Part shown: in pieces, positions 1 through 957 of the stretch
How the letters are laid out: every line of letters starts with the position of its first letter
Numbering within the stretch: the first letter of the stretch is position 1
From: a virus
Taxonomy: Duplodnaviria; Heunggongvirae; Uroviricota; Caudoviricetes
Reading direction: 5' to 3' (one strand)
Length of the DNA stretch: 5,860 bases
IMG/VR virus record: IMGVR_UViG_2695420651_000011
Coordinates: 1 to 5,860 of that record
Notes under the pieces: generated by a model
Database searches by the model: none
The model's input: only the letters and a program-made list of their open reading frames with translations
What the model was told of the DNA's origin: nothing
Program-made: the position numbers and the translations under genes

Positions 1-65
1 CTTTCCAGAACCATACGAACTGCCCGTTGACGGACCTCGGGGGAAAAACGTGTATTTTTAGTCAT
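1..65 (-). CDS. IS3-family transposase OrfA, N-terminal 21 codons only (partial, runs off window)
   Basis: Manual translation of the minus strand from ATG at 65..63 gives MTKNTRFSPEVRQRAVRMVLE, preceded by GAGGT-like SD (agaGGTaaacaggATG). This N-terminus resembles IS629-type OrfA as I recall it. It is absent from the ORF track because it has no stop inside the window. Confidence 0.7.
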   Translation of the reverse strand, partial: MTKNTRFSPEVRQRAVRMVLE

Positions 66-119
66 CCTGTTTACCTCTTTCTCAGGGAGTTTAGTCTCCA
101 GGATTCCCGGGGCGGTTCA
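1..119 (-). mobile_element. IS3-family insertion sequence (IS629/IS1203-like), terminal ~119 bp including the inverted-repeat end; the element continues beyond the window start
   Basis: Minus-strand sequence from 119 downward reads TGAACCGCCCCGGGAATCCTGGAGACTAAACTCCCTGAGAAAGAGGTAAACAGGATGACTAAAAATACACG..., i.e. an IS3-type TGA terminus followed by an RBS and orfA start. This matches my recollection of the IS629 left end; no database search was run. Confidence 0.75.
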
Positions 120-923
120 ACCAGCCTGTGTTTTCGGTACCGTAAAACGATCTTTTGCTAAATTTCTCCTGATCATCATTGTTCCATTTTTCAGATCTAT
201 GTCCTCCCACCCAAGCGCACACAGTTCACCAGGGCGAATGCCTGTATAAACAGAAACACACCATAAATTTTTGGCCTGCTGATTTCTGCAGGCGTCGATA
301 AGACGGATAAATTCCTCCCGTGAAAGAGGATCAGGAATGGTTCTTGATTCCTTTAATGGCGAGATCCCCTTAAACGGATTATCTGTCAGGTAACCGTTAT
401 CAACACCGAACTGGAACACGGCGTAAAGATTTGTCATGTAATTATTTACGGTGACAGCCGATCTCCCCGGTTGCGTAACAATATAATTACTTTTGGGGAT
501 CTGGTATCCAGTAAGTAATTCTTTACGTACCGCCAGCAATTTTTCTTTATTAATCGACGAGGCAAGATTTTTTTCACCGATTATGCTCAGAATATTTTTG
601 ATGACGGCACGGTACGTGTTGAGTGACGTTTTTGCGACTTCCGTTTCTTTCAGTGCCAGAAATTTTTCAGCCAGTTCCTTTATGGTTAAATCTTGTCGGG
701 CCTCACCAAATTTTTCCAGATTGTGTGAGGAGGGAAACTGTTTTGCATAGTCGAAAACGCCGGTTTTTATTGCATAACAAACAGAGGCGCGCAGCTCACC
801 TGCAATGCGCCTGTTTTTTGCCGTGTCAGGAACCCCCAGATTTTCCCTGACTCTTACACCTTTATAAACAAACCAGATACGTAATTTCCCTCCATGGTTT
901 TCCACGCCTGTCGGATATTTCAT
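117..923 (-). pseudogene. int: Prophage tyrosine integrase (lambda-Int-like), 3'-truncated by IS insertion; only the N-terminal ~268 codons remain
   Basis: ORF 117..938 begins MREAEMKYPTGVENHGGKLRIWFVYKGVRVRENLG (typical lambdoid Int arm-binding N-terminus) and ends shortly after ...GIRPGELCALGWEDIDL (region of the first catalytic Arg). The K, HxxR and catalytic Tyr regions expected in the C-terminal ~100-150 aa are absent. The stop codon at 117..119 is the terminal TGA of the IS. Likely start is the second Met at 923 (SD-like GAGAAG upstream); the track start at 938 is the alternative. Confidence 0.8.
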
Positions 924-957
924 TTCAGCTTCTCTCATTGGTTCGTGTTGCTTTTAG

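Follow-up and report, generated by a model that had tools for sequence, protein, structure and literature searches.

Has an insertion sequence (IS) cut short the integrase gene of a Qin-like prophage, and what would that mean for the ability of the prophage to leave its host chromosome? The question is raised by one end of a 5,860-nucleotide stretch of tailed-phage DNA (the window), where an integrase (int) reading frame runs into what looks like an IS terminus. The window is the complete 5860-bp draft contig CYCH01000081.1, reverse-complemented, and it carries in order a ydfC-like gene, a DicF-like RNA, dicB, a DUF1482 (ydfD-type) gene, an 823-aa exonuclease gene, xis and int. The genes, the RNAs and the IS features placed below by window coordinates all lie on the minus strand. 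The original prediction, made from the letters of the window, was that an IS3-family element has been inserted into int, that the element supplies its premature stop codon, and that the resulting dead integrase would lock the prophage in place.

An integrase gene cut after codon 273

The int frame runs from 938 to 117. Depending on whether the ATG at 938 or that at 923 is taken as the start, it comprises 273 or 268 codons, and it closes with a TGA at 119..117, in agreement with the predicted frame of 268-273 codons ending in an IS stop. Alignment to an intact int and Pfam searches identify positions 120..938 as codons 1-273 of 431 of a tyrosine-recombinase gene of the Qin/intQ type. Reverse-complemented, this part of the window equals the first 273 codons of int in O55:H7 strain CB9615 (L001:4363-5181) at 819 of 819 nucleotides, with no mismatch. 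The intact CB9615 gene encodes 431 aa and is placed between xis and rspB (L001:4363-5658). In a megablast search of 5,426 complete E. coli genomes, positions 120..1300 showed 100% identity to O55:H7 strains, whose annotation presents the gene as a full 'site-specific integrase'; the GenBank annotation of the window's own product (CTW13159.1) reads 'defective integrase; Qin prophage'. The chromosomal flank that would reveal integration at the ydfJ/rspB site lies outside the window, and the identical CB9615 int 5' part, the orthologue in strain D53-1 and K-12 intQ all adjoin rspB. The int of the window is the Qin-site orthologue. Since its 5' part carries no substitution relative to the intact allele, the comparison suggests that the IS event is recent.

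The truncated protein retains an arm-type DNA-binding domain (PF12167, Arm-DNA-bind_2, aa 9-71, E=2.8e-24) and gives weak matches to SAM-like core-binding models over aa ~85-190, which fall below the cut-offs of these models. The Pfam match to PF00589 (Phage_integrase), which spans residues 206-397 of the intact 431-aa protein, shrinks to residues 206-261, corresponding to profile positions 4-63 of 172 and to the first third of the catalytic domain. What is left is an arm- and core-binding remnant with an incomplete tyrosine-recombinase catalytic domain.

Catalytic residues were placed by PDB alignment of the intact Int to Tn1549 Int (6emy, 6en0) and XerA (5hxy); from established knowledge of tyrosine recombinases, we take Arg235, Lys269, Arg364, His387 and Tyr397 to be these residues. 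Arg235 lies in YTGIRPGEL, aligned with TGLRISEL of Tn1549 Int, and corresponds to the arginine of the conserved TG(L/I)R motif. The beta-hairpin Lys269 lies in PKTQAG, aligned with PKTQSG of the same protein (PKTQ(S/A)G), and Tyr361-x-x-Arg364 in YQSRHT, aligned with HAMRHT. His387 and Tyr397 are both found in GHADAQMVFQVY, Tyr397 falling on the tyrosine of the QIY motif of XerA. Ending at Gly273, the truncated Int keeps Arg235 and Lys269 and has lost Tyr361 and Arg364 (the YxxR box), His387 and the nucleophile Tyr397. Aligning the 273-aa product with the intact integrase, as had been proposed, places the truncation after codon 273 of 431 and leaves the active site incomplete. The HxxR and tyrosine nucleophile regions are absent as predicted, but the end of the product is not close to the first catalytic arginine: it lies 38 residues past Arg235 and 4 past Lys269. 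Because Arg364, His387 and Tyr397 are lost, the truncated Int should be catalytically dead and incapable of cleaving and rejoining att DNA. As a separate observation, the first histidine of the canonical HxxR box is Tyr361 (KSYQSRHTY) in the intact O55:H7 Int and in all 3' fragments retrieved.

An IS629-type element at the contig edge

Positions 1..119 hold the first 119 nt of an IS629-type (IS3-family) element, the left end of which faces int and the remainder of which runs off the contig. Reverse-complemented, they match at 119 of 119 nucleotides (L003:2501-2619) the left terminus of an IS3-family element of 1310 bp in O145 strain RM9872 (L003:2501-3810), a match on which the idea of an IS at this position stood or fell. 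The IS part of the window is matched at 99% identity or more by 866 records, with copies in O145, O26, O111, O103 and other strains. Identity to the annotated IS629 of VT2-Sakai is 113/119 (95.0%), with six differing positions. The left terminal inverted repeat (95..119, 25 bp, 5'-TGAACCGCCCCGGGAATCCTGGAGA) agrees at 24 of 25 positions (window 119..95) with the 'inverted repeat from left end of IS629' in AP000422, and, of its positions, 13 terminal and 9 further ones pair with the right end of the full copy. The orfA start codon (ATG, 65..63) is 55 nt from the IS end. It opens the first 21 codons of the transposase OrfA (3..65, MTKNTRFSPEVRQRAVRMVLE), which are ended by the contig edge and agree exactly with the start of the 108-aa OrfA encoded by the full copy. 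The match to HTH_Tnp_1 stays below the cut-off on this short 21-aa piece (E=0.0026) and reaches E=1.4e-12 on the full OrfA.

The full copy in O145 RM9872 starts with TGAACC and ends with GGTTCA, and the 3 bp AGC are duplicated at its flanks. Its products are the 108-aa OrfA (HTH_Tnp_1) and a 295-aa OrfB (HTH_21; rve, E=1.1e-25), and it is annotated as 'IS3 family transposase, programmed frameshift'; in the window, the orfB region lies beyond the contig end. The full copy is identical at 1252 of 1310 positions (95.6%) to IS629 of VT2-Sakai and to IS1203v, and at 99.6% to an element annotated as IS629 in O55:H7 phage JLK-2012. Compared with IS629, IS1203 and IS1203v of EHEC and EPEC, the window is alike in the left repeat, the distance of the orfA ATG from the IS end and the first 21 OrfA residues, and full copies with the same end as the window share the 1310-bp length, the orfA/orfB programmed frameshift and the 3-bp duplication. 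The O157 Sakai prototype, in contrast, shows 6 differences over the 119 nt and, when compared with the full copy, 58 over 1310, the variant in the window being that of the copies in O145, O26, O111 and O103 and of those associated with O55:H7. With a TG...CA-type left inverted repeat, an orfA HTH start inside the left end and high identity to the prototype, the element belongs to the IS629 type, and the earlier assignment to an IS3-family, IS629-like element was correct.

The junction between int and the IS

Homology to int ends at position 120 and identity to the IS begins at 119. The window diverges from the intact gene exactly after codon 273, reading ...CAGGCTGGT|TGAACCGCC where the intact gene reads ...CAGGCTGGT ACC AAT CGG. 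The IS begins 5'-TGAACCGCCCCGGG..., so its first three bases supply the TGA at 117..119, and the claim that the IS provides the premature stop is accurate to the base. The last int codon is GGT (Gly273, 120..122), which would be the 3-bp target site if the IS arrived by simple insertion. The left end of the IS is set against the 3' end of the truncated int, and transposase and int point in the same direction. Identities of 119/119 and 819/819 on the two sides of the join are far beyond chance.

Simple insertion or rearrangement

The sequence shows the junction directly, identifies both of its partners and reveals which catalytic residues are lost; from this we infer a simple insertion, an inactive protein and an immobilised prophage. 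In this reading, int of a Qin-like lambdoid prophage would have received an IS629-type element by transposition, immediately behind codon 273 (GGT) and with the transposase along the direction of int. Since the join coincides with a codon boundary and 5'-TGA opens the IS, translation would halt at the first IS triplet and yield a 273-aa (or 268-aa) fragment without a foreign tail. Such a fragment would keep the arm- and core-type DNA-binding domains together with Arg235 and Lys269 and, being devoid of Arg364, His387 and Tyr397, would neither cleave nor rejoin att sites. Excision by the prophage's own Int would then be abolished despite the intact xis. We consider this combination of simple IS629-type insertion, dead Int and immobilised prophage the best explanation of the locus, and a probable one.

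A simple insertion is the most likely reading. In both comparable cases among closed genomes, the insertion is simple and the two halves of int are kept. In D53-1, an IS1203-type element is located in the orthologous int after nt 915, adjoining rspB; in UTAK-12, 00_3305, 2010C_3902 and 7_12_30A, an IS629 is located in the orthologous int after nt 956, with a GTAC duplication. D53-1 and the UTAK-12 group resemble the window in int family, IS family and orientation, but their insertion points (nt 915 and nt 956, respectively) differ from nt 819 in the window. The UTAK-12 group further differs in carrying the Sakai-type IS629 variant, and has ydfK after int in place of rspB. While the other copies are flanked by observed duplications (AGC in O145, GTAC in UTAK-12), GGT is a prediction for the window.

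The main alternative is that the join is the scar of an IS-mediated adjacent deletion, or of recombination between two IS629 copies leading to a deletion or an inversion, by which the 3' part of int was removed or relocated. In that event attR and flanking chromosome may have been lost and the prophage end may be gone; Int would be equally dead and the loss irreversible. Only one IS junction is visible, since the contig breaks inside the IS in a repeat-induced manner, and all three records in which the junction occurs (described below) end within the IS, with no continuation in the assembly. Searches with Int residues 274-431, look-ups and DNA scans did not recover the right IS end, a GGT duplication or int codons 274-431. 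After a simple insertion, the right junction would consist of the IS right end ...CCGGGGCGGTTCA, then GGT, then ACCAATCGGGTAATTC..., with int from codon 273/274 reading GGTACCAATCGGG.... This DNA was absent from the genome and metagenome collections, which were scanned for exact sequences and which do not include the source assembly.

On the protein level, 13 predicted 3' products from three int alleles were looked up exactly, comprising a 140-aa form from Met291 and contig-edge forms with the IS-derived prefixes NTLQENRGGS, TLQENRGGS, LQENRGGS, QENRGGS and RGGS. The 3' products of the O55-type allele are absent from the protein collection, which includes the source assembly, and the true 3' allele may differ. 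Only the generic 140-aa forms P0137 and P0150 are on record, and any upstream lesion yields these; the ten listed locations of P0137 show other lesions and do not include the source sample. That the O55-type 3' product is not on record weakly allows that the 3' part of int belongs to another allele or is missing.

Several related cases also fit a rearrangement. The orthologous int of O157:H7 has a frameshift and a deletion that removes rspA and rspB up to ynfA. In K-12, where intQ is a pseudogene, a 706-bp IS2E remnant has taken the place of xis together with the 3'-terminal part of the exonuclease gene (ydfE') and the 5'-terminal part of int, and many genomic deletions in O157 have been attributed to IS629 (PMC9943667). 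Against this stand the two closed-genome cases with both int halves present, and the searches described above are weak as negatives, given their restriction to exact sequences, the uncertain 3' allele and DNA collections lacking the source assembly. We regard a rearrangement as possible, though clearly less probable than a simple insertion. With respect to the original prediction, an IS joined to the integrase is upheld by the base-exact join, while its wording that the IS is inserted into the gene, in the sense of a simple insertion with duplication, is unproven from a single junction. Following the contig further, as had been suggested, showed that it ends inside the IS; the other IS end and a target-site duplication were not found. 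The case illustrates how short-read contigs broken in IS copies hide the second junction, which is the one that separates insertion from deletion.

Repeated disruption of the Qin-site integrase

The Qin-site integrase has been hit repeatedly and independently, by IS629/IS1203, IS66, IS1 and IS2 (K-12 intQ) as well as by frameshifts and deletions. Contigs with an int 3' fragment carry upstream of it IS66, IS1, IS3-family elements in the opposite orientation (L013, L015) or frameshifts, and in the P0005 int fragment the IS629 right-end peptide RGGS is joined at RLSKEH. The independent int lesions were located at L002:5318-6627, L020:~4292-5600, L004:8442-9190, L009, L012, L013, L015 and P0005. 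An IS629 hot spot or orientation bias in codons 273-319 was considered and dismissed, as the searches select same-orientation insertions downstream of codon 273; the opposite-orientation IS3-family elements upstream of the 3' fragment in L013 and L015 also count against an orientation bias.

Consequences for prophage mobility

Loss of self-excision by the prophage's own Int is to be expected, and it is plausible that the prophage is locked in place and that its genes are fixed as host genes. For this prophage, with its intact 823-aa exonuclease gene, xis, dicB, a dicF-like RNA and a ydfD-like gene, excision by its own integrase is predicted to be impossible. A precedent is found in O157:H7 Sakai, where Int is disrupted in the prophages Sp3, Sp11 and Sp12, which were predicted to be non-excising and for which no circular form was observed (Asadulghani et al. 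2009, PMC2669165). Like the window, these are lambdoid prophages with a disrupted integrase, but the lesions differ, and the excision data come from Sakai.

Immobilisation could be softened by loss of the IS promoted by the IS-excision enhancer (IEE), or by an integrase of matching specificity provided in trans by a co-resident prophage. IEE promotes IS629 excision and co-occurs with IS629-type transposases (PMC9943667), and IEE-mediated IS excision restored an interrupted gene in the case of IS600 in lacZ (PMC9397093). A disruption that is reversible, through precise IS loss mediated by IEE that restores GGT-ACC and a full int, or functional, with the 273-aa fragment acting as a regulator, seems improbable to us. 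If it were reversible, mobility of the prophage could be switched back on, the 819 nt of int being without substitution; if functional, a stable 273-aa fragment could occupy the arm and core sites of att and serve, in a trans-dominant manner, to inhibit or regulate the excision that related integrases carry out.

It had also been pointed out that the insertion places an outward-facing IS end next to xis and int. The left end of the IS abuts the 3' end of int, however, and a consensus scan found no promoter-like site in 1..1200; an outward promoter directed toward xis and int finds no support. The single promoter-like hit of the scan in 1..1400 is at 1223-1252.

The original observation holds and was interpreted correctly in the main. 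Disruption of int is an ordinary and well-known route to prophage immobility, and the present case is a new insertion allele among many IS629 gene inactivations in pathogenic E. coli. It adds one more Qin-site prophage with a lost integrase, and is of little significance beyond strain biology.

Occurrence of the junction in other records

The identical join is present in at least three separately assembled records, CYCH01000081.1 (the window), AIAH01000260.1 and a Logan contig of ERR137804, which extend 119, 55 and 29 nt into the IS, respectively. The latter two show no mismatch to the window over their full lengths of 2499 and 1380 nt. By exact look-up, the 268-aa product was found on CYCH01000081.1 (GCA_001285725.1), AIAH01000260.1 (GCA_000446175.2) and the ERR137804 contig, with several samples each, and the 273-aa product had no match. 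Megablast gave no contiguous match to the int-IS junction in the 5,426 complete E. coli genomes, and a 36-nt pattern over the join was absent from the genome, viral and metagenome contig collections scanned. The junction is genuine and marks a small clone seen in a few draft assemblies; with 0 of 5,426 complete genomes carrying it, it can serve as a clone-specific marker.

These records also bear on whether the join is an assembly artefact, that is, a chimeric contig end linking int reads to an unrelated IS copy. The position of the IS at the extreme end of a short-read contig and the multi-copy nature of IS629-type elements would fit such an error, but a contig break inside a repeat is normal assembler behaviour at a genuine insertion, and the same base-exact junction recurs in three separately produced records of different sources; we consider an artefact highly improbable. 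The least credible reading, refuted by the alignment, takes the 273-aa product for a short integrase-like DNA-binding protein that occurs naturally, as its complete arm-binding and core-binding domains might suggest: its DNA equals the 5' part of a 431-aa gene at 819/819 positions, homology stops at the IS terminus, the stop codon belongs to the IS, no intact homologue with a natural end at residue 273 was seen, and the other fragments of 84-264 aa among the listed members of its sequence cluster (15 of 76) end at various points, most of them annotated as 'partial' and several on very short contigs.

Prophage context and comparison with K-12 Qin

The window displays the Qin-type gene order dicF-dicB-ydfD-exonuclease-xis-int, with Pfam matches to DicB, DUF1482, YdfE_N/YdfE_C and DUF1233. 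The excisionase gene xis (958..1209) is intact, encodes 83 aa and is located 19 nt upstream of int; its open frame extends to 1281, and its product matches DUF1233, 'putative excisionase', with E=2.6e-31. The equivalent in CB9615 is a 252-bp gene for an 'excisionase family protein'. The exonuclease gene (1281-3752) is likewise intact, and its 823-aa product contains YdfE_N, YdfE_C and an Rv2179c-like 3'-5' exonuclease domain.

K-12 Qin shares with the window the order of dicF, dicB, ydfD, exonuclease/ydfE and int and an int inactivated with involvement of an IS; rspB adjoins intQ on the chromosomal side, as it does in strains related to the window. The analogy to K-12 intQ drawn in the original prediction is sound: the IS2E remnant abuts and overlaps this pseudogene, and the surroundings are likewise dicF-dicB-ydfD-exo-(xis)-int-rspB. 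The window differs in that the element that cuts int, after codon 273, is of the IS629 type and both the exonuclease gene and xis are intact; in K-12, all that is left of the exonuclease gene is its 5' part, the ydfE pseudogene with its IS2E truncation. The whole contig (120-5860) has a best match of at most ~95% among complete E. coli genomes, whereas int and xis are 100% identical to O55:H7 strains, so the region is a mosaic of prophage alleles.

With 43.5 bits (E=3.2e-8), a DicF-like sRNA at 4396-4445, ~175 nt upstream of dicB, falls short of the Rfam gathering score of 48 and was therefore missed by the default Rfam search; its stem contains two non-canonical pairs, and its loop is one base shorter than the consensus. 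In the same region, a sub-threshold match to the Rfam family STnc100 (4202-4407, minus strand; 32.1 bits against a gathering score of 47) extends over the dicF-dicB spacer and the start of dicB.
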